Positions 3,339 through 27,100 of a stretch of DNA of 36,138 bases are shown one piece after another. A model generated the notes under the pieces. The model saw only the letters and a list, made by a program, of their open reading frames with translations. It did no database searches and was not told the DNA's origin. This stretch comes from a virus. The stretch is taken from UHGV virus genome UHGV-0014975, one strand, 5' to 3'. The position numbers and the translations under genes are program-made. The first letter of the stretch is position 1; every line of letters begins with the position of its first letter.

Positions 3339-4127
3339 TTAATTCCATTTATATTCTGTAACTGATAATACTTTTGATCTTCCTAAAGCATTTTTGCCAT
3401 TGTAGAAATAAATATGAGAACGTTCGTCTTGAAGACTATAGCTCATTACAGCACCTTGAATAGAGCTTGCAAGATTATCTTTCTCATCTGAGGAAAGGCT
3501 TCTAAAATCTTCTGTCACTTGAACTTCAATATCGGTGCCTGTCCATTCAATAGAATTGACTAGAAGCCAGTTTTGATATTCAGGATTTGGTTCCCCATTT
3601 TCAATGGAATTTCCATTCTCATCTATAGTACCAAGGGCCCAACCTTGATTAAGTTTCAAATGTTCGTCAATTTCATTATTAATTTCTGTTAACTCAGAAT
3701 CGACCGAACTAGATTGCTGGCTATCTTCTTTGCTATTACTTGATTGTTCCGGAAAGGGGGTAATAGTAATAGACTTACTTGCTTTTTGTCCATCTTTTGA
3801 AACATTGATTTTAAGTTCTTTTTCTTCATCAACTTTTTTGTAAATTAATTCAAACTCACCGTTTGAATCAGACTTAGTAGAATCTCCAACAATTCCTTTG
3901 CCGATTTTTACTTTAGCATCTGGAATAGTTGTACCAGTAATTTTTACTTTGCCATTTTCATCAGCTTGAAATTGATCTGGAATATCTAATGTTATTTCCT
4001 CATCGCTACTGATCACTGTACTTTCAACAACTTCGCTATTTGACACAGAATCTTTACCAGATTCAGAACACGATGCCAAGACTATTGTCGAAAATAAAAT
4101 TATCACAGCATATGCTAACTTTTTCAT
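3339..4127 (-). CDS. Prophage lipoprotein (signal peptide plus lipobox LASC); candidate superinfection-exclusion protein
   Basis: N-terminal MKKLAYAVIILFSTIVLASCSE, a typical SPase II lipobox, followed by a Ser/Asp-rich linker and an Ig-like beta region. It lies between int and the repressor, where Ltp-type Sie lipoproteins sit in other Firmicute phages. Confidence 0.6.
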   Translation of the reverse strand: MKKLAYAVIILFSTIVLASCSESGKDSVSNSEVVESTVISSDEEITLDIPDQFQADENGKVKITGTTIPDAKVKIGKGIVGDSTKSDSNGEFELIYKKVDEEKELKINVSKDGQKASKSITITPFPEQSSNSKEDSQQSSSVDSELTEINNEIDEHLKLNQGWALGTIDENGNSIENGEPNPEYQNWLLVNSIEWTGTDIEVQVTEDFRSLSSDEKDNLASSIQGAVMSYSLQDERSHIYFYNGKNALGRSKVLSVTEYKWN

Positions 4128-17855: not shown

Positions 17856-19004
17856 ATGGCAATCACTCAACGACAACTAGACATTAAATCTGCTGCAATA
17901 CAAGATTCTTACTTAACTCTTGAAGAAGAAATTATGCAGCTAGTTGTTGATCGATTAAAGATTAAAACTAATGCAGAACTCTCCAAGGATACTGTTTTTC
18001 AGTGGTATCTTGAAAAATTGGATCAACTGGGGCTACTTAACTGGGAGACAATCAATGAGTTGGTTGAGGAAACCAACGGTGTTACCAAGAATGAGCTAGC
18101 CGATATTGTTACAAAAGAAGGCTACAAGAAGAATCTGCAAGAAAACAAGAAACTTGCTAATTTGGCCAAAACACCCGTTAAAGAATGGACTAACTTGGAT
18201 CAAATACTCAACCAATATTTCGAAAGTCAATGGTTAGATTTTGAGAATCATATCAATCAGACACTTTTGTCTACCAATTATCAAGTAAACTCAATTGCAA
18301 AGATGTATCAGCAAGTTCTGAATGATACGGTCGCAAGAATCATCGGGGGTCTGGTAACGCCACAGAAAGCTTTTAGAAGGGCAATCTATGAAATGGTTCA
18401 AAAAGGGATTGATGTCAGTCTAAAAGACAAGTCAGGGAAGTCGTGGACGCTTGAGGCGTATGTACGTACCGTGATCAAATCAACAACAGGCACTGTATTT
18501 AATGATTTGAGACTCGAAAGAGGTATAAACGAATATGGAATAGTTACAGCTCTTATGAGTCATCATCCGGCAGCTCGTGATGCTTGTAGCAAGATCCAGG
18601 GTAAATATGTTCTGATGGTTCCTAAAGCTCAAGCACCTGCAGAATACCGTCACTTACCTAGCGTATACGACTATGGTTGGAAGACACCTGCCGGATGTAA
18701 CGGTATTAATTGTAATCATCGTTGGTATTCTCAACTACCTATGGAAGATACTGGCATGACTGATCCTGTGAACCCAGAAATTGCTCAACAAAACGCTAAA
18801 ATTGTTGCTAAACAACGAAGATTAGAGCGATCAATTAGAATGGCTAAGAAATCTCTCAAGGCTTCCGAATGGTTAGGCGATCAAGAAGACATCGAACACT
18901 TTAAATCGATTGTACGAGCAAGACAAGCTGTCCTGCGACAATTTATTGAAGACAACAAAACTCTTTTACATCGATCATATGATCGGGAACAAGTTTATTC
19001 ATAA
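17856..19004 (+). CDS. Minor head protein (SPP1 gp7 / Mu F-like head morphogenesis protein)
   Basis: 382 aa immediately after the portal; central region ...MSHHPAARDACSKIQGKYV...GCNGINCNHRW typical of this family. Confidence 0.7.
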   Translation: MAITQRQLDIKSAAIQDSYLTLEEEIMQLVVDRLKIKTNAELSKDTVFQWYLEKLDQLGLLNWETINELVEETNGVTKNELADIVTKEGYKKNLQENKKLANLAKTPVKEWTNLDQILNQYFESQWLDFENHINQTLLSTNYQVNSIAKMYQQVLNDTVARIIGGLVTPQKAFRRAIYEMVQKGIDVSLKDKSGKSWTLEAYVRTVIKSTTGTVFNDLRLERGINEYGIVTALMSHHPAARDACSKIQGKYVLMVPKAQAPAEYRHLPSVYDYGWKTPAGCNGINCNHRWYSQLPMEDTGMTDPVNPEIAQQNAKIVAKQRRLERSIRMAKKSLKASEWLGDQEDIEHFKSIVRARQAVLRQFIEDNKTLLHRSYDREQVYS

Positions 19005-19126
19005 TCCATATCCAAAAGTCTAGTATTGCTGGGCTTTTTTGTTTTGCTTTAGACCTGCTCGGATGTCTCTAAAAGACGGACTCGAAGCGGGAGTTGCCGC
19101 TCTAAAAACACTTAGGAGGAATATTG

Positions 19127-19693
19127 ATGAAAAAAGAAGACTTAATCGCTTTAGGAATTGACGAAGATACGGCTAAAAATGTGATGGCTTTGCACGGTAA
19201 GACAGTAACGCAACTTAATGCGCAAGTAGCTACCGCAGAAAGTGAGCGTGACAGTGCGAAACAGGAACTGCAAGCCAACCAAGCTGAATTAGACACGTTG
19301 AAAGAATCAGCAAAAGGTAATGAAGATCTCGAAAAGCAACTTGCTGACTTACAAACAAAGTTTGACGAATCAAAAACCAATTCCGAAAAGCAATTTGCTG
19401 AACAACAGAAAGATTTTGCTATCAAATTGGCGCTTAAAGAAGCACAGGCGCTTGATGAGGACATTGTCCTTACTCAATTAGACAAGGACACGATTAAAGT
19501 CGTTGATGGCAAATTACAAGGATTTGATGAACAACTAAAATCCCTACAAGAAAGCAAAGCATTCTTATTTCAGCAACAAGAACAAAACGAGGATAAACCA
19601 ACTCCTACGATCTTTGCTGGGGGCATTCCTAAAGGAGCTGGCAGCAATGAAAAAACGATGGTACAAAAAATTCAAGAAAGATTAGGTGAATAA
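19127..19693 (+). CDS. Scaffolding protein
   Basis: 188 aa, acidic, almost entirely coiled-coil ([45 protein letters not shown]); AGGAGG RBS 7 nt upstream; precedes the capsid gene. Confidence 0.75.
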
Positions 19694-19695
19694 AT

Positions 19696-20556
19696 ATGGC
19701 TTTAGTATTAGACAGTAAAGACTTAGCAACTATTGATAAGGAATTCCGTGCCGATTCTCAAGTTTGGGATGTTCTGACCCAAGGAGCAAAGAGCATCACT
19801 GCGGCTGACTTTGTCGGAGCAAATGAAGTCCGAATTAATAAAATGAGTGGATTTGTGGAAGCAACACAATATAAACGTAATCAAGACAATGCTAGAAGTG
19901 CAGTTAGCATTGAGAAGGAAACGATCAAACTTACTCATGAAGACTGGTTTGCATATGATGTAGATCAGTTAGATCAATCTGAGAGTGCAGCTTTGACAAT
20001 TAACAATGTTGTAACTGAACATAAACGATTGATTACCGTTCCTCATCGTGACAAAGTGGCTATTCAAGTTATGTTCGACAATGCAGGTAAAAAAATCAAT
20101 GAAACTCTGACTGCGGCAAATATTCTCACTGCATATGACGCTGCAGAAGAATACATGACAGACAATGAAGTTCCTGGCGGATATGTGATGTTTGTTTCGG
20201 CAGCTACTTATCGATTATTGAAAAATGCTGATGGAGTCAGCAAAACTTTCTCCACAAATCAAATGCAGATTAACGGAATCAATCGTACGGTTGCTCAAAT
20301 TGACGGTGGTGTGCCAATCATCAAAGTTGCAAAAGGCCGTATGTCTGGTTTGACAATTGAAGACACTGTAAACTTTATCATTACACCACTAACAGCAATT
20401 GCTCCAATCGTTAAATTTGGTACGGTTGACACTGTTCCGGCTAGTCAAGATCGCAATGGCTACCGTGATACAATTAAAGGTTTGGACTATTACGATGCGA
20501 TTGTATTTGATAATGCTAAAAAAGCAATTTATGTATCTTACGTCCCAAAAGCGTAG
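19696..20556 (+). CDS. Major capsid protein
   Basis: 286 aa, position after the scaffold, HK97-fold-like composition; ends ...SYVPKA* with a slippery site in the last codons. Confidence 0.75.
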
Positions 20557-20813
20557 CCCCATCAGGAGTGACGTTAGATCAAACGACGTTATCTCTTGAA
20601 GTTGGGGGCACAGCGACGTTGAAAGCTACCGTTTCGCCTGCAGAAGCAAGTGACAAATCAGTTCAATTTAGTTCAAGCGATACGGGAATTGCGACTGTCA
20701 CTCCTGTACAAGGGAAAGTAACAGCGGTAGCGGCTGGATCTACAACGATCACAGCAACAACAGTAAATGGCAAAACTGCAACTTGCCAAGTCACCGTGAC
20801 GGAGGGAGCTTAA
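20550..20813 (+). CDS. -1 frame Big_2 (bacterial Ig-like) extension of the major capsid protein via programmed ribosomal frameshift
   Basis: The -1 frame is open from 20514 to 20813. The canonical X_XXY_YYZ heptamer C_CCA_AAA (20544..20550) sits two codons before the capsid stop. After the slip the reading is ...[85 protein letters not shown] (Big_2 signature). Confidence 0.7.
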
Positions 20814-20828
20814 TAAGCTCTCTTTTTT
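20806..20828 (+). terminator. Terminator after the capsid gene
   Basis: GAGCTT-aat-AAGCTC hairpin followed by TCTTTTTT. Confidence 0.5.
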
Positions 20829-20842
20829 GGAAGGAGGGACTT

Positions 20843-21232
20843 ATGGCTTACTTGACTTATACGGAATACAATGAAATCGGATATACATCAATGACTGAAG
20901 ACGAGTTCGATGAGTTAGTCAACAAAGCTTGTGATCTTGTTGATGTACAAACAAGAAATTTTTATCAGTTCAACGATTTAGAATCTGACATTGACTTTCG
21001 CAAATCGAAATTCAAAAAGGCAGTTGCAGCTCAAATAGAATATATGTATCAAGCGAATGCTACTTCGACACTTGAGATCAACAGTCCTCAAAGCTGGTCA
21101 GTAGATGGTATGAGCGTAACTGAAGCTAGCAGATACAATAATACAGGAGCAAACGAGTCGCCCTCTATTATGTCCGACGATGCTATCCTGCTTTTATCAG
21201 GTACAGGGTTGCTGTTTAGGGGGCTAGGGTAA
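20843..21232 (+). CDS. Head-tail connector / DNA-packaging adaptor (gp6-like, SPP1 gp15-like)
   Basis: MAYLTYTEYNEIGYTSMTEDEFDELVNKACDLVDV..., an N-terminal signature of the phage gp6-like head-tail connector family; RBS GGAGGG. Confidence 0.65.
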   Translation: MAYLTYTEYNEIGYTSMTEDEFDELVNKACDLVDVQTRNFYQFNDLESDIDFRKSKFKKAVAAQIEYMYQANATSTLEINSPQSWSVDGMSVTEASRYNNTGANESPSIMSDDAILLLSGTGLLFRGLG

Positions 21233-21570
21233 TGGGTTATTATCGTTTACCACCAAAAAAAGCGTTCTGTCACACGATTACCTATAAGGAAGTAATCGGG
21301 GAAGATGACTGGCAAAAGCCTATTACCAAAGATTGGACGGTTGAAAACTGTTGGTTTAACTTTGCTTCAAAGTTCACTCGTTCAGGAATAAACTCTACTG
21401 ATGATGCTCCAAACGCTTCGGTAACTATGACAGATCGATTCTGTGGACCTCTACCAGATTTCAAAGTAGCAACCAAAATTGAGTTCAAAGGTGATGAGTT
21501 TACAATTATTACTTCTAAACCGTTGATTCTAAATGGACAGTCCATCGGTTGGCGACTGGAGGTAGTCTGA
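21232..21570 (+). CDS. Head closure / head-tail joining protein
   Basis: 112 aa, TAATG-coupled; position between the connector and tail genes. Confidence 0.5.
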   Translation: MGYYRLPPKKAFCHTITYKEVIGEDDWQKPITKDWTVENCWFNFASKFTRSGINSTDDAPNASVTMTDRFCGPLPDFKVATKIEFKGDEFTIITSKPLILNGQSIGWRLEVV

Positions 21571-21899
21571 TGTCGATCAAAGTTGATTTAAGTGGAGTTA
21601 GGAAAAAGCTGTCAACTGAAAACTTTGAGCGTGGTCAATTTAATATGGCATCAAGGATGCATTCAACGATGAACGAAAACTTTGTTCCTGAAAAAGACGG
21701 CGATCTACGTAAAATGAGTAATGTCGCTCCAGATGGTAGTCAGATTGAATGGATTTCCGTTTACGCTAGACGCCAATTCTATGCGCCGGGCGGTTGGAAG
21801 TACACGACTCCAGGAACCGGACCAAGGTGGGATCTAAAAGCAGAAGCAATCTTTATGAGCGACTGGATAAAAGCATTTAAGAAAGGAGCCGGGTTGTAG
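21570..21899 (+). CDS. Head-tail joining protein (HK97 gp10-like)
   Basis: Start MSIKVDLSG (ATGA overlap, GGAGG RBS); ...WISVYARRQFYAPGGWKYTTPGTGPRW motif region. Confidence 0.5.
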   Translation: MSIKVDLSGVRKKLSTENFERGQFNMASRMHSTMNENFVPEKDGDLRKMSNVAPDGSQIEWISVYARRQFYAPGGWKYTTPGTGPRWDLKAEAIFMSDWIKAFKKGAGL

Positions 21900-22306
21900 T
21901 GGACTTTATAGAACGCTTAAATCAATCAGTGAATACTATTCCAAACTTACCGCTTAAATGTGTTCTGGGATATCTGCCACCAAAGGATGAAGCTTTTGTT
22001 TTGTACCCGTTAGCAGGTGGCCAAGTGACCCAAGAATTCTTTGACGGTACAAAAGATCAAGAGTTGAACTTTGAATTTGCAATGAAGTCACAAGATCAGC
22101 AGAAAATAAGTAATGCACTTTGGCTTGTGCAAAATTATCTAGAAGAGCTGTCGGAACTAAATAGTTCTGATGGCTCTTTTGATTTCGACTCTATTAGCAT
22201 TACAAACAAACCATTTATCAATCAACTGGATGAAATAGGTACTTACATCTTTTTGGTTGATATTAAAGCAAAAATCACAACTTATCCTAAGGGGGAAACA
22301 AACTAA
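21899..22306 (+). CDS. Tail completion / tail-to-head joining protein
   Basis: GTG start overlapping the previous stop; 135 aa; position immediately before the major tail protein. Confidence 0.5.
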   Translation: MDFIERLNQSVNTIPNLPLKCVLGYLPPKDEAFVLYPLAGGQVTQEFFDGTKDQELNFEFAMKSQDQQKISNALWLVQNYLEELSELNSSDGSFDFDSISITNKPFINQLDEIGTYIFLVDIKAKITTYPKGETN

Positions 22307-22764
22307 TGGCAAGAAAAAAGAACGCCCTACGGCAACATTTTGTTGCTGACTATGATGCAACTAAGCCAGACACTAAACCATTGGAAGACGCCTATAAGAA
22401 ATTTGGGCGCTACGTAACGACTGTTGAAGATGATGGCGATGTGCAATCGGAAGATTATGCCGATTACGCAGGCGATGGTACTTTATCAACCGATGTTACT
22501 GGCGTAACCGAAAAATGGAATTTTTCTGGTTATTGGGATCCAGAGCAAAAAGCGCAGCAACTTGTCAAAAAGAAAAAACGTGCTAAAGGCAATGATCGAA
22601 AAGTTTGGCATAAAATCATTGAAACAGACGGAACGACAATCGAAGGAGTTGGAACTCTTAGCGAGAAGATCGTAGCAGGTTCTGGGGAAGCTTCTGATTG
22701 GGAAGAATTCAGTTGTGCTATCACTTATGACAAAACACCAGAAGTAACGGAACCTACACCCTAA
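22306..22764 (+). CDS. Major tail protein
   Basis: 152 aa; position between head-tail joining genes and chaperones/TMP; ends CCC_TAA, a shifty stop leading into the FN3 extension. Confidence 0.65.
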   Translation: MARKKNALRQHFVADYDATKPDTKPLEDAYKKFGRYVTTVEDDGDVQSEDYADYAGDGTLSTDVTGVTEKWNFSGYWDPEQKAQQLVKKKKRAKGNDRKVWHKIIETDGTTIEGVGTLSEKIVAGSGEASDWEEFSCAITYDKTPEVTEPTP

Positions 22765-23104
22765 TGCTCCCCGGAACGTAACCGGGGAAATCAAAGAAGA
22801 TGGATCTATTTCTCTTGGTTGGGATGCTGTAGATGATGCTCAAGCTTATCTTGTGCATTACGGTAATGCGAATCAATCGGAACCAACCCAAGCTGTTAAT
22901 ATGGGCTACACAGAAACAACTAGCTGGACTTTAGCAACAGGTGATGTACCAGAGCTTACAACTGGAGATAAGATTTATCTCTATGTTCAGACTTACAGAG
23001 AAAAAGGTGTAGGCGCAACGGATGTTGAGAAAGCACGTTTCTTGCATGACGGTCCATATACTGGTTCAGCTTGGTCAACACCAACTATTTTAACTAAAGA
23101 CTAA
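22760..23104 (+). CDS. +1 frame FN3-domain extension of the major tail protein via programmed +1 frameshift
   Basis: The +1 frame is open from 22748 to 23104. The slip is at CCC_UAA (22759..22764), with tRNA-Pro re-pairing on CCU. The continuation NAPRNVTGEIKEDGSISLGWDAVDDAQAYLVHYG...TSWTLATGD...GDKIYLYVQTY is a classic fibronectin type III pattern. Same arrangement as SPP1 gp17.1* and Listeria phage PSA Tsh-L. Confidence 0.65.
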   Translation, partial: PNAPRNVTGEIKEDGSISLGWDAVDDAQAYLVHYGNANQSEPTQAVNMGYTETTSWTLATGDVPELTTGDKIYLYVQTYREKGVGATDVEKARFLHDGPYTGSAWSTPTILTKD

Positions 23105-23149
23105 AAGGGAGGGCTTATTGCCCTCTTTTTTTATTAGGAGGAAACAAAC

Positions 23150-23593
23150 ATGCAATTTGAAATTAAACGTTCTGGATTTCCTATTAACATCGGAAAAATT
23201 GAGTTTTTCTTTGGGACAACAGTCGAGGAATTAACACGCTTTTTCGATGTTCAAGACGAAGTCGAAGAAAAGATTGCGCCATTGGTGAAAAAGCGAGAAA
23301 AATTAGTGATCGATCAAGAAAATATTACTAAACGTGATGCTGAAAGTCTTATTGAGATCTCTAATGAACTTAATGCTATTCAGTACGATGCACTTCTTGG
23401 TGATGGATCCTATGAAAAAATCTATTCGAAGTACCAAGATGCAATTCAATTGTTCGATTTATTTGATCAAATCTTTGAGAACATTATTGAAGCGATTGAA
23501 AACTATGCAAAAGAGCGTGAAGACAAGTTAGCACAACGCAAAGCAAATATGCTGAAGAAGAAAGCTCTTAAAAACAAAAAGAAGAAAAAGTAG
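23150..23593 (+). CDS. Tail assembly chaperone-like protein (gpG position)
   Basis: 147 aa, acidic with a Lys-rich C-terminal tail; strong RBS AGGAGGAAACAAAC-ATG; sits between the major tail protein and the TMP. Confidence 0.5.
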   Translation: MQFEIKRSGFPINIGKIEFFFGTTVEELTRFFDVQDEVEEKIAPLVKKREKLVIDQENITKRDAESLIEISNELNAIQYDALLGDGSYEKIYSKYQDAIQLFDLFDQIFENIIEAIENYAKEREDKLAQRKANMLKKKALKNKKKKK

Positions 23594-23602
23594 GTGATCT
23601 AG

Positions 23603-24172
23603 ATGCGGTTGAATGACCCATTGACCACTGAAATTGAATTTGAAGGTAGTGTGTATCCACTTGATCTGGCTTTTGATAATGTCTTGGATGTTTTAGATAC
23701 CATCTCTGACAGGTCTTTGATGGCTTGGGAAAAGGTTGATTTAGCTCTCAATCTTCTTGTAGGTGAATCTAATCTTACCTTCGAGAAACAAATGGAGCTT
23801 TGGGAGTTGATTTTGAATCGACATATTCAGATCGGAAGTCAAGAGAAAGTGATTTATGACTTAGAAGGCAATCCTATGCCAACACCTAAATCTTCTGATG
23901 ACAAAAAGAGTATGGACTTGGTCCAAGATGCTAAGTACATATATGCCTCCTTCCGTCAAATCGGCATTAATCTTTTTGAGGAGCAAGGGAAAATGCACTG
24001 GGAAGAATTTCAAGCTATCCTAGAAAGCCTTCCAGATGACACAATTCTTCCAAAAATTGTTCAAATCCGCAACTGGTCGCCTAGTAAAGGTGAAAGCGAA
24101 AAGGAAAAAGAGCGCATGAGAGAACTGCAAGCCAAATACTCCTTAAACAAGGAGGTGGATGCTGATGGCTGA
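23603..24172 (+). CDS. Tail assembly chaperone-like protein 2 (gpT position)
   Basis: 189 aa; same frame as the upstream gene, separated by two stop codons; stop overlaps the TMP start region. Confidence 0.5.
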   Translation: MRLNDPLTTEIEFEGSVYPLDLAFDNVLDVLDTISDRSLMAWEKVDLALNLLVGESNLTFEKQMELWELILNRHIQIGSQEKVIYDLEGNPMPTPKSSDDKKSMDLVQDAKYIYASFRQIGINLFEEQGKMHWEEFQAILESLPDDTILPKIVQIRNWSPSKGESEKEKERMRELQAKYSLNKEVDADG

Positions 24173-27100
24173 TGGAAAAATTGTTATTGCTGTGGATGTT
24201 GATGGAAAACAGGTATCTGTACTAAATAAGAATTTGGATCAATTGGAAGGAAAGTCTTCCAAAGCCGGAGCTTCCATAAAAAACATGGCTGTCAGCATGG
24301 GGCTTGTAAAAGTTGCCGGTGCAGCATTTAAAGTCCTAGCAAACTCTTTAGATAGTGCGATAAGTCGATTTGACACGATGCAAAAGTTTCCCAAAGTAAT
24401 GAATGCACTAGGTTTTAGCGCAAAAGAATCACAAAAATCTATTGATAAACTATCCAATGGGATCGACGGTCTTCCTACTAAGCTTGATGACGTTGTTGCA
24501 AGCACCCAGCAAATGACTGCTATCACAGGGGATTTGGATAAATCTACCGATACTGTTCTAGCCTTGAATAATGCTTTTCTCGCATCTGGAGCCTCTACAG
24601 AGGACGCTAGTCGAGGAATGCAACAATTTAATCAAATGTTATCAACAGGCACCGTTGACTTAGAAAGTTGGAAAACTCTTCAAGAAACGATGCCTTTAGC
24701 TTTGCAAAAGACCGCTGAAGCTATGGGATTTGTTGGCAAGTCTGCTCAACGAGATTTGTATGCTGCTTTGAAAGATGGAACCGTAACGTTTGACCAATTC
24801 AATGACAAGCTTATTGAACTCGGAACAGGCACTGGAATGCTTGCTGACCTTGCCAAAGAAAACAGTTTAGGTATTGCTACTTCTTTTGGAAATTTGAGCA
24901 ACGCTGTAGCTAAAGGTGTAGCCAATGTAATTACTAAGTTAGATGAGTTGTCTAAGGTTTTGACAGGTAAAACAATTGCTCAAAACATAGATAGTGTTAA
25001 AGGAATTATTAATGATGCATTTAGCGCCGTTGTTGATTCAATGGACATTCTTATAGAAAATTCAGACGAACTTATCAATACTTTCGAAACTTTGGTAAGT
25101 ATTGTTGAGCTTTTGGCCCCTGCATTCGTTGGAGCAACTGCAGCTTATTTAACCTTTGAAGCTGTTACTTCCGCAGGAACTGCATTTAAAGCAATCTCCA
25201 AGGGAGTAACAAGTTTAATCGGTAAATTTGAAACCATGCAGATATTAATGCTTTATCTCGTGAATGATGGATTTGGAGCGATGCTTAGTGCAGCTGCACC
25301 GCTAGCAGGAGGATTTCTTGGATTAGCAGGAATTATAGCTGCGGCTATTGCAGCAATAGTCGCTGTTTTTGTATATTTCTACAAAACGAATGAAACTTTT
25401 AGAAATGGAGTTAACAAAACAGTATCAGTCCTAAAAGAAGGGCTTGTTGCTGCTTTCAACTGGTTAAAAACTGTTTTAGCCGGTGTTTTACCAACGCTTC
25501 AAAAAGTAGCTTCTGTAATCGGCACGGCAATAGTCAGTGGATTCAATAAAATGGTAGCTGTTGGTTCTGCAATTCTATCCGTTGTTGTTCCAGCTTTGCA
25601 ACGATTCGCAAGTGCTGCAAAGGAAGTCTTGTCTACCGGATTGGAAAAAATGGGTTCAATTTTATCTACAATCGGCAATGTTCTTTCGGGCGCTTTTTCC
25701 TCTGGCATGCAACTAGCAGGCGATTTGTTAGAACGTTTAGGTGGTTCTTTTGGGAAAATCGGCGGTGTAGTAAGTATTGTGATTAGCGTACTGACGAAAC
25801 TGGCACTTGTTGCTTTGGGATTAACAGGTCCATGGGGGACTTTGATTTCTTTGGTCCTATCATTTGTTGCGGCGTGGGTCAAAACAGGAGACCTCTCGGC
25901 AGATGGGATCACTCAAGTTTTTGATAACTTGCAGTCAACAATCACTAATGTGGCTAATTTTATAAGTACCAACTTACCTAAATTCGTACAGTTGGCAACA
26001 GACTTTATCACCGGATTTTTGAACGGATTGACTGCAGCTTTACCAGGAATTGTTTCTGTTGCTACAGAAATCATTCAAACTCTGGTTAATGCTATAACTA
26101 CAGTTTTGCCTCAAATTATTTCATTAGCGACGCAAGTGATCACTACTTTAGTTCAAGGGTTAGCAATGGCATTGCCAGCGTTGATGATTGTAGCTTCTCA
26201 AATAATTGTCCAGCTTATTACGGCTATAGCTGATGTCTTACCACAATTGGTAGAAGTTGGTGTCTCTGTCCTTAAAGCCCTAATAGAAGGGATAACGAGT
26301 GCGCTACCAGTCATTATCAAAGCGGCAATAGGCATCTTGAATGCACTAATTGATACTCTTTTATCAGTTTTGCCAATGCTGCTCGATGTTGGTCTGCAAA
26401 TTATCACTACTTTGTTAGACGCAATTATTTCGGCACTCCCTGCGTTGACGGAAGCAGCAACAACGATTGTCACTGGATTACTGACGGCCTTTATAACAGC
26501 TTTACCAATGCTTATCGCCGTTGGGGTACAAATATTAATGGCACTGATCCAAGGGCTGTTATCAATACTTCCAACATTACTAACGGCAGTCTTACAAATT
26601 ATTATGGCACTTGTGACAGCGCTGATTGCGGCATTGCCACAAATCATTGAAGCCGGAATTCAATTATTAATGGCGCTGATCGAAGGTATTTTGTCAATCT
26701 TACCTCAACTGATTGATGCGGCTATTCAAATCATTACTGCACTATTAGGCGCTCTTATCGAAGCCTTACCACAGTTGATTGATGCAGGTGTTCAATTGTT
26801 GCTAGGATTGGTCGCCGGTGTAATATCGGTACTTCCACAACTTGTTGCAGCTGCTTTGCAACTAATTGCAGCTCTTTTAGGTGCATTGATTGGTGCTGTT
26901 CCTCAGTTGCTATCTGCAGGTGTTAAGCTAATTGCAGCTCTAATTAGTGGAGTATTAAGCCTGATAGGACAGTTATTATCTGCTGGAGGTAAGTTAATTA
27001 GTGGATTACTTTCTACAATTTTAGGCTTCTTAGGAGACTTATTGTCGGCAGGTGGAAAATTAATCGCAAGCCTTGTATCTGGAATAGGTGGAGCGATTGG

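Follow-up and report, generated by a model that had tools for sequence, protein, structure and literature searches.

In the viral genome UHGV-0014975, a stretch of 36,138 nt that was analysed as a whole and is called the window here, the major capsid protein gene (19696..20556, + strand, as are all features below) appears to be decoded with a -1 programmed ribosomal frameshift that would add a bacterial immunoglobulin (Ig)-like domain of group 2 (Big_2) to some of the capsid subunits. We estimate the probability of this reading at about 0.88. The anatomy and conservation of the signal, the coding status of the -1 open reading frame (ORF) and the fold of its domain were computed. What is new is the occurrence of a -1 signal of the type found in Lactobacillus phage A2 on a capsid gene of the type found in Lactobacillus phage LL-H, in an enterococcal prophage and unannotated in public records. 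Current understanding of the mechanism is unchanged; it has been established in phage A2 since 2004.

Slippery site, downstream hairpin and -1 reading frame

The capsid ORF (0 frame, 286 aa, 31.5 kDa) ends with TAC GTC CCA AAA GCG TAG, the stop codon TAG being located at 20554-20556. Its 3' end holds the slippery heptamer C_CCA_AAA (20544..20550) in the X_XXY_YYZ register of the 0 frame, followed by a single sense codon (GCG) before the stop; ORF, gene end and heptamer were thus found as described in the first-pass annotation of the window. A spacer of 6 nt (GCGTAG, 20551..20556) contains the 0-frame stop. The -1 ORF extends from 20520 to its own TAA at 20811-20813. That annotation had correctly reported an open -1 frame, but had let it begin at 20514, whereas TAA codons are present at 20511-20513 and 20517-20519. 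The 0 and -1 frames overlap at 20520..20553 with the heptamer inside the overlap, as in canonical -1 signals. Of the 88 residues announced for the continuation, 87 are newly encoded after the slip (20550..20810), and 88 codons are reached only when the slipped lysine codon (20547-20549) is counted. The computed fusion protein comprises 285 + 87 = 372 aa and 39.8 kDa, compared to 286 aa for the short form. When the -1 frame is read from the heptamer, the predicted junction is ...YVSYVPK|SVAPSGVTL..., in agreement with the peptide proposed earlier (...SYVPK|SVAPSGVTL...).

The heptamer alone is unremarkable, with four occurrences of CCCAAAA in the window and seven expected. In-frame X_XXY_YYZ heptamers were counted 66 times in the 12,687 codons of the long open frames, a rate at which about one ORF with a heptamer in its last five codons is expected in DNA of this size. 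The site at 20544..20550 was the only in-frame heptamer within five codons of a stop in these frames; it opens an 85-codon -1 extension past the stop and is the only stop-proximal heptamer with a long one. What lies above chance is the conjunction of a stop-proximal heptamer, an 85-codon extension, a Big_2 domain scoring 59.9 bits and a hairpin 6 nt further on.

Capsid homologues were retrieved by protein from 22 genome loci and 80 viral-contig loci (62-99% capsid identity). The heptamer was kept in 42 distinct junctions (63-100% protein identity), all of which had been selected for carrying it. Within this set the codon preceding CCA varied (GTC, GCC, TCC, ATC, ACC, AGC, CTC or AAC, encoding V, A, S, I, T, L or N), its third base being C in all 42. 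The third positions of CCA and AAA were likewise invariant, compared to 33-69% conservation at neighbouring third positions, and conservation of the slip site in these heptamer-bearing junctions exceeds the need of the encoded protein. In nearly all of them, the 0-frame stop was located one codon past the heptamer. Capsid homologues without the heptamer have other gene ends.

A search for RNA structure downstream of the heptamer, as suggested in the first-pass annotation, revealed a predicted stimulatory hairpin at 20557..20607 (19 bp, CCCC/GGGG base, 9-nt loop) in the minimum free energy (MFE) fold. Its stability of -27.3 kcal/mol (z = -3.87) was matched by 0 of 200 dinucleotide shuffles. Similarly, the segment with the hairpin (-25.4, against a genomic background of -9.0 +/- 4.0) was not equalled by any of 200 random 62-nt segments. 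The hairpin is predicted to begin 6 nt 3' of the heptamer, within the canonical distance of ~5-9 nt. In the nearest deposited phage, the unannotated Enterococcus phage 4995_2 (78% nucleotide identity), the same junction was found with a hairpin built from different stem bases (z = -4.65). Among 44 distinct homologous junctions, 32 have a helix that starts 5-7 nt past the heptamer, including members of subgroups whose -1 extensions are unrelated in sequence. Additionally, the window's own MFE structure was laid on 28 aligned junctions, a choice that biases the test towards that structure: 79% of the cells were paired, compared to 35-55% in slid registers, seven pairs had changed on both sides (e.g., column pair 24-51 with AU 12, CG 6 and UG 4), and the covariation score of 0.148, against 0.107, was reached by 0 of 500 shuffles. 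Synonymous divergence was 0.49 in the hairpin codons and 0.65 in the rest of the -1 ORF. An Rfam scan of 19000..24500 gave no match close to the junction, and no match in that range exceeded a gathering score.

The Big_2 identity of the -1 product, called unmistakable in the first-pass annotation, was borne out by Pfam (PF02368 at 20565..20792, E=2.4e-16), with a score of 59.9 bits compared to a gathering cut-off of 22.8. It further has a match to phrog_215 (E=6.7e-28), annotated as 'structural protein with Ig domain'. AlphaFold2 was run on the natural fusion homologue P0001 with a shallow alignment of 33 sequences and assigned a predicted local distance difference test (pLDDT) value of ~90 to the Big_2 residues. 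In Foldseek, the modelled domain superimposed on the crystallographic Big_2 domain of 7quz with a root-mean-square deviation of 0.8 A over 82 columns; further matches were the Ig-like domains of lambda gpV (gpV-C) and of the capsid proteins of phi29 and mycobacteriophage Douge. The -1 ORF is under purifying selection, with a median ratio of nonsynonymous to synonymous substitutions (dN/dS) of 0.16 over 323 sequence pairs, and its length of 82-95 open codons is preserved in dozens of divergent lineages. A similar Big_2 domain is contained in 955 phage records, many of them annotated as capsid or tail tube.

The 0-frame product was identified as major capsid protein via PHROGs and tblastn, the Pfam search of the protein having given no family match. 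Residues 1-285 match phrog_422, 'major head protein', from end to end (E=7.2e-74), and the protein is 62% identical to the LL-H protein annotated as major capsid protein gp34. The full-length profile match and the gene order (portal, minor capsid, scaffold, capsid, adaptor) both place it with LL-H gp34 and phrog_422. The scaffolding protein gene is located directly upstream (19124..19693; PF06810 Phage_scaffold, E=4.5e-38), and the next gene downstream, a head-tail adaptor (20843..21232; phrog_541, E=4.1e-34), marks the end of the capsid recoding unit. A PDB sequence search with the capsid protein found no solved relative (best E=0.016). The protein is 100% identical to P0002, 'capsid protein [Enterococcus gallinarum]', and the closest genome locus to its gene is that of E. 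gallinarum NBRC 100675 (99%). Because of these two matches, the window is regarded as an E. gallinarum-type siphovirus prophage.

Proposed mechanism and competing explanations

The interpretation as a -1 programmed frameshift, already put forward in the first-pass annotation, is supported by the conservation of the heptamer, the hairpin, the purifying selection on the -1 ORF, in-frame fusions in relatives and the junction of phage A2. Most ribosomes would read GTC CCA AAA GCG and terminate at UAG, which would yield the 286-aa capsid protein. A minority would pause with tRNA-Pro on CCA and tRNA-Lys on AAA; we propose that they do so because the 19-bp hairpin, starting 6 nt downstream, sits at the mRNA entrance. 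Both tRNAs would then slip one base in the 5' direction onto CCC and AAA, and translation would go on in the -1 frame (AGC GTA GCC CCA ...) for 87 codons. The resulting capsid protein of 372 aa would end in a Big_2 Ig-like domain, attached through the short linker SVAP. As both forms share the whole capsid fold, the long form would be expected to co-assemble into the shell, where the Ig-like domains would be shown at sub-stoichiometric density. Weak adhesion to surfaces or carbohydrates, or stabilisation of the shell, is the role proposed for Ig-like domains on capsids. For the slip itself, its efficiency, the incorporation into the virion, the surface display and an adhesive or stabilising role, this scheme leans on the A2 precedent and on general knowledge of frameshifting.

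Several points weigh against this reading. The frameshift is a computational proposal, and the two capsid species as well as the shifted peptide are predictions. RNAalifold gave an empty consensus structure for the 28-sequence alignment. Furthermore, the register of the hairpin differs among subgroups, the covariation is modest, and the conservation of the arms may be explained in part by the encoded peptide (SVAPSGVTL...LEVGG). The A2 hairpin, when folded here, was no more stable than its shuffles, so the strength of the hairpin is not universal to this signal. In the AlphaFold2 model of P0001, the capsid part has a pLDDT below 50 and is unusable, and an outward position of the C terminus is unsupported by the model. 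Finally, the frame overlap begins at a second lysine run, AAA AAA at 20518..20523, where a low-level -1 slip is conceivable in principle and would give ...NAKK|.... This run is not conserved: its third positions vary in relatives, a suitably spaced structure is missing, and re-pairing of the P-site codon would be on UAA. It is probably irrelevant to the frame change.

A separate small gene is a first alternative, to which we attach a very low probability. The Big_2 ORF would be translated alone from the GTG at 20568, either directly or by re-initiation after the UAG at 20554, and a free decoration protein of 81 aa would result. Public calls are written in this way, listing a 'capsid protein' of 286 aa and, apart from it, a Big_2 gene of 81 aa that automatic gene callers placed in three independent contigs; the fusion is missed by automatic annotation, as had been foreseen. 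The ORF list of the window likewise gives 20568..20813 from this GTG, and some relatives, e.g., Latilactobacillus phage TMW 1.706 P2, have a separately annotated small ORF after a heptamer-less capsid gene. An AGGAG is present at 20564-20568, but this only element resembling a Shine-Dalgarno (SD) sequence overlaps the GTG (spacing zero) and sits in the 5' arm of the hairpin. The start codon, named in the first-pass annotation as the alternative to a frameshift, is not conserved either, being replaced by GTT, GTA or ATT in relatives. Their first ATG, GTG or TTG in the -1 frame lies 24, 30, 45, 57 or 75 nt (at most 25 codons) 3' of the heptamer and in general has no SD, and neither a conserved start codon nor a conserved SD was found for the -1 ORF among the relatives compared. 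Moreover, conservation at the protein level includes SVAPSG, encoded before the GTG, and the existence of in-frame fusions of this domain to the capsid protein argues against a gene of its own.

Just as improbable is the absence of any recoding, the -1 ORF being either a decaying remnant of an in-frame capsid-Big_2 fusion broken by a 1-nt indel or the result of a sequencing error. In-frame fusions that could have been the source do exist in relatives. In Tetragenococcus prophages (L016, L082 and L083; locus ~3340..3616), a homologous capsid protein is fused in frame to a homologous Big_2 domain, and protein P0042 (371 aa) shows the same arrangement. The capsid part of this type is 80% identical to that of the window, the linker is ETIPPVAVVGVTL, and both the heptamer and the CCCC 5' arm are missing; every subunit would bear the Big_2 domain. 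In P0001 (378 aa), the predicted junction SPKSVTP is read in one frame throughout; this may reflect a genuine indel, in either direction, or a faulty assembly. Extensions of only 19-26 codons after the same heptamer, as seen in some relatives, are readable as decay. However, these short-extension variants also keep the hairpin at the same spacing, and a remnant is difficult to reconcile with a -1 ORF that remains open across dozens of diverged lineages at a dN/dS of ~0.16, with heptamer, stop one codon on and hairpin all retained. An assembly error as origin of the split frame was rejected because the exact capsid protein, stop included, is present on 125 contigs with the same split reading frame, which also speaks against a sequencing error.

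Productive transcriptional slippage requires homopolymer runs of about 7-9 or more nucleotides. The addition or loss of an A by RNA polymerase in the four-A run at the site, with no role of the ribosome, is a known alternative route to a frame change, treated in a review, and the least probable one here, since A4 is too short and the conserved feature is the full X_XXY_YYZ register with a hairpin at 5-7 nt, a signature of ribosomal slippage.

Under the frameshift reading, annotation of the 372-aa trans-frame product would give the likely virion composition, whereas the public 81-aa Big_2 gene has an unsupported GTG start. This capsid protein, together with its close relatives, is common among prophages of Enterococcus, Listeria and Lacticaseibacillus. 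Sub-stoichiometric display set by the efficiency of the frameshift would be a tunable design, and the site would mark a natural position for low-copy capsid display in phage engineering. With its strong predicted hairpin and 6-nt spacer, it lends itself well to measurements of -1 frameshifting in enterococci.

Variants of the signal in relatives and in the tail tube gene

Payloads other than Big_2 were observed in capsid homologues. At several loci (L059-L064, L065, L067, L088, L093 and L104), CCCAAAA, stop and hairpin are kept and the -1 ORF encodes 18-24 residues beyond the slipped Pro-Lys codons, e.g., PKSVAPKVGKLTPTTSGVVIEMEEGA. After the same signal, a 55-aa -1 module with a motif like DAQTIDEIKSWLTAH (HeH-like) was found in L094 and L096, and an acidic 66-aa -1 tail in L078. 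Judged by sequence, the short, HeH-like and acidic extensions are alternative payloads on the same signal. In capsid genes of the Enterococcus diestrammenae type (L011, L057 and L095), the end reads GTG ACA CCC TAA, without a -1 heptamer and with a 55-codon +1 ORF; this +1 motif, ACA_CCC_TAA, is the one present on the tail gene of the window. One capsid family thus appears to use either -1 or +1 signals.

The exact 17-mer CCCAAAAGCGTARCSCC was scanned in viral contigs and gave at least 120 matches (loci L112-L231). Among the matches listed, it closes a long ORF ending in ...PKA and the stop in 118 of 120, and the -1 ORF begins with PKSV(A/T)P at these 118 junctions, part of the apparent conservation being built in by the pattern, which fixes GCGTAR and C[CG]CC (ascertainment bias). 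The upstream ORFs of the same matches fall into 19 clusters, and their -1 payloads, which seem interchangeable, comprise Big_2, a ~57-aa HeH-like module, peptides of 17-26 aa and extensions of several hundred residues. Major head protein genes ending in CCCAAAAGCGTARCSCC belong to at least seven PHROG families (422, 10, 247, 840, 544, 29 and 267). The same end was seen in genes of major tail proteins, in what is probably a tail-chaperone pair, for which no PHROG matched, and in genes of giant proteins with multiple domains (L114, L152 and L189). The recoding signal might therefore be regarded as a portable cassette, consisting of xxC_CCA_AAA_GCG_UAR, a GC-rich hairpin 5-7 nt on and the linker PKSV(A/T)P, rather than as the property of one capsid family. 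We offer this idea tentatively and give it slightly less than an even chance. If the cassette does move horizontally as a unit, it would serve phages that infect Gram-positive bacteria as a general, reusable device for adding a minor C-terminal variant.

The tail tube gene (22306..23104) is a second candidate for recoding. The 152-aa ORF of the major tail protein (22306..22764; phrog_820) ends in the +1 slip site ACA_CCC_TAA (22756..22764), and a hairpin CCCCGG-N7-CCGGGG is predicted 4 nt past the stop (22769..22787). In the +1 frame, 113 open codons extend as far as 23104, and the FN3-like domain that they encode has its match in the C-terminal end of phrog_7440 ('major tail protein'); gene callers separate this domain as a gene of 67-97 aa. 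Some relatives of the tail gene keep CCC_TAA or CCC_TGA together with a hairpin changed in both arms (CCCCAG/CTGGGG), and in others a -1 signal, C_CCA_AAA or A_AAA_AAA, occupies this position. Between the end of the FN3-like ORF, which it follows immediately, and the chaperone genes, GAGGGC-TTATT-GCCCTC with a subsequent T-run (23104..23135) makes up a terminator-like hairpin, to which weak sub-threshold Rfam matches to small RNAs at 23050..23195 are probably due. The two tail-chaperone-like genes at 23150..24172 lie in the same frame, separated by TAG and 9 nt, and match PF10666 Phage_TAC_8 (weakly) and PF06854 Phage_Gp15 (E=1.6e-38). The first of them closes with a lysine-rich stretch of AAG and AAA codons, and no obvious overlapping frameshift of the G/GT type was noted at these genes.

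Comparison with known systems

The major head gene of Lactobacillus casei phage A2 (gp5A/gp5B; relatives J-1, PL-1 and BH1) ends with ACC CCA AAA GCG TAA, in which heptamer and context are identical to those of the window (C_CCA_AAA_GCG_TAR). Its -1 frame reads PKSVTPDGVTLSQKTL..., a Big_2 domain, and the start of this product, PKSVTPDGVTL, is homologous to that of the window. In the A2 group and in the window, both -1 products start with PKSV(A/T)P.GVTL and contain a Big_2 domain of ~85-90 aa. The record of phage J-1, with the same heptamer, contains a joined coding sequence, 'major capsid L' / 'major capsid S'. Going by the title of a 2004 paper of Garcia, Rodriguez and Suarez (J Bacteriol 186:1714), the A2 product is reportedly a second essential capsid component. 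CCCAAAA has been named the slippery sequence of the A2/BH1 phage group (PMC6950654), and the A2 capsid frameshift is cited as an experimentally described -1 event giving an Ig-like extension. The A2/J-1 precedent is taken here from genome records and such secondary citations.

The mechanism would be common to A2 and the window, the capsid gene is not. BLASTP of the A2 protein against the capsid protein of the window gave no significant similarity (best E=1.3) and thus no sign of orthology to A2 gp5. The PHROGs differ as well, the window having phrog_422 (LL-H gp34 type with a separate scaffolding protein) and A2 being of the phrog_10 type, the family assigned to loci that match its capsid protein, with a protease and a processed propeptide. 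A stem is foldable a few nucleotides downstream of the A2 heptamer, whereas in the window the hairpin starts nearer to the heptamer (6 nt) and is far more stable (-27 compared to ~-18 kcal/mol). The A2 stem is said to begin 9 nt after the heptamer, with which the fold made here is consistent. The host genus also differs (Lactobacillus for A2, Enterococcus for the window).

According to a review, Listeria phages A118 and A500 use -1 frameshifting for the capsid and +1 frameshifting for the major tail protein, and PSA uses +1 in both. The window resembles A118 and A500 in combining a capsid -1 signal with a CCC_UAA +1 signal on the tail tube gene, and its tail chaperone genes match the Pfam families of A118 Gp14 and Gp15. 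In comparison with these three Listeria phages, the tail extension of the window is FN3-like rather than Big_2. In Listeria phage LM 4-11-1, C_CCA_AAA_GAA_TAG is followed by a homologous Big_2 domain. Homologous Big_2 domains are also attached to other capsid genes via +1 signals, CCC_UGA in lactococcal phage ul36 and CCC_UAA in PLgW-1, which matches the remark of the review that the direction of the shift looks incidental.

Gene 10A/10B of T3 and T7 is like the capsid gene of the window in that a -1 frameshift near its end gives a minor, longer, co-assembling capsid protein. The first-pass annotation was right that such capsid extensions are known, but its example of an Ig-like one, T7 10B, does not hold: according to the review, the T7 extension is not Ig-like and that of T3 is, T3-like phages having a Big_2-related extension. 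Both differ from the window in being podoviruses that infect Gram-negative bacteria, and their capsid family and slip site are not the same either. In phi29 gp8, mycobacteriophage Douge gp8 and the Tetragenococcus prophages, a C-terminal Big_2/Ig-like domain is joined to an HK97-fold capsid protein in frame and without recoding. In these fusions every subunit bears the domain, whereas its display in the window would be sub-stoichiometric.

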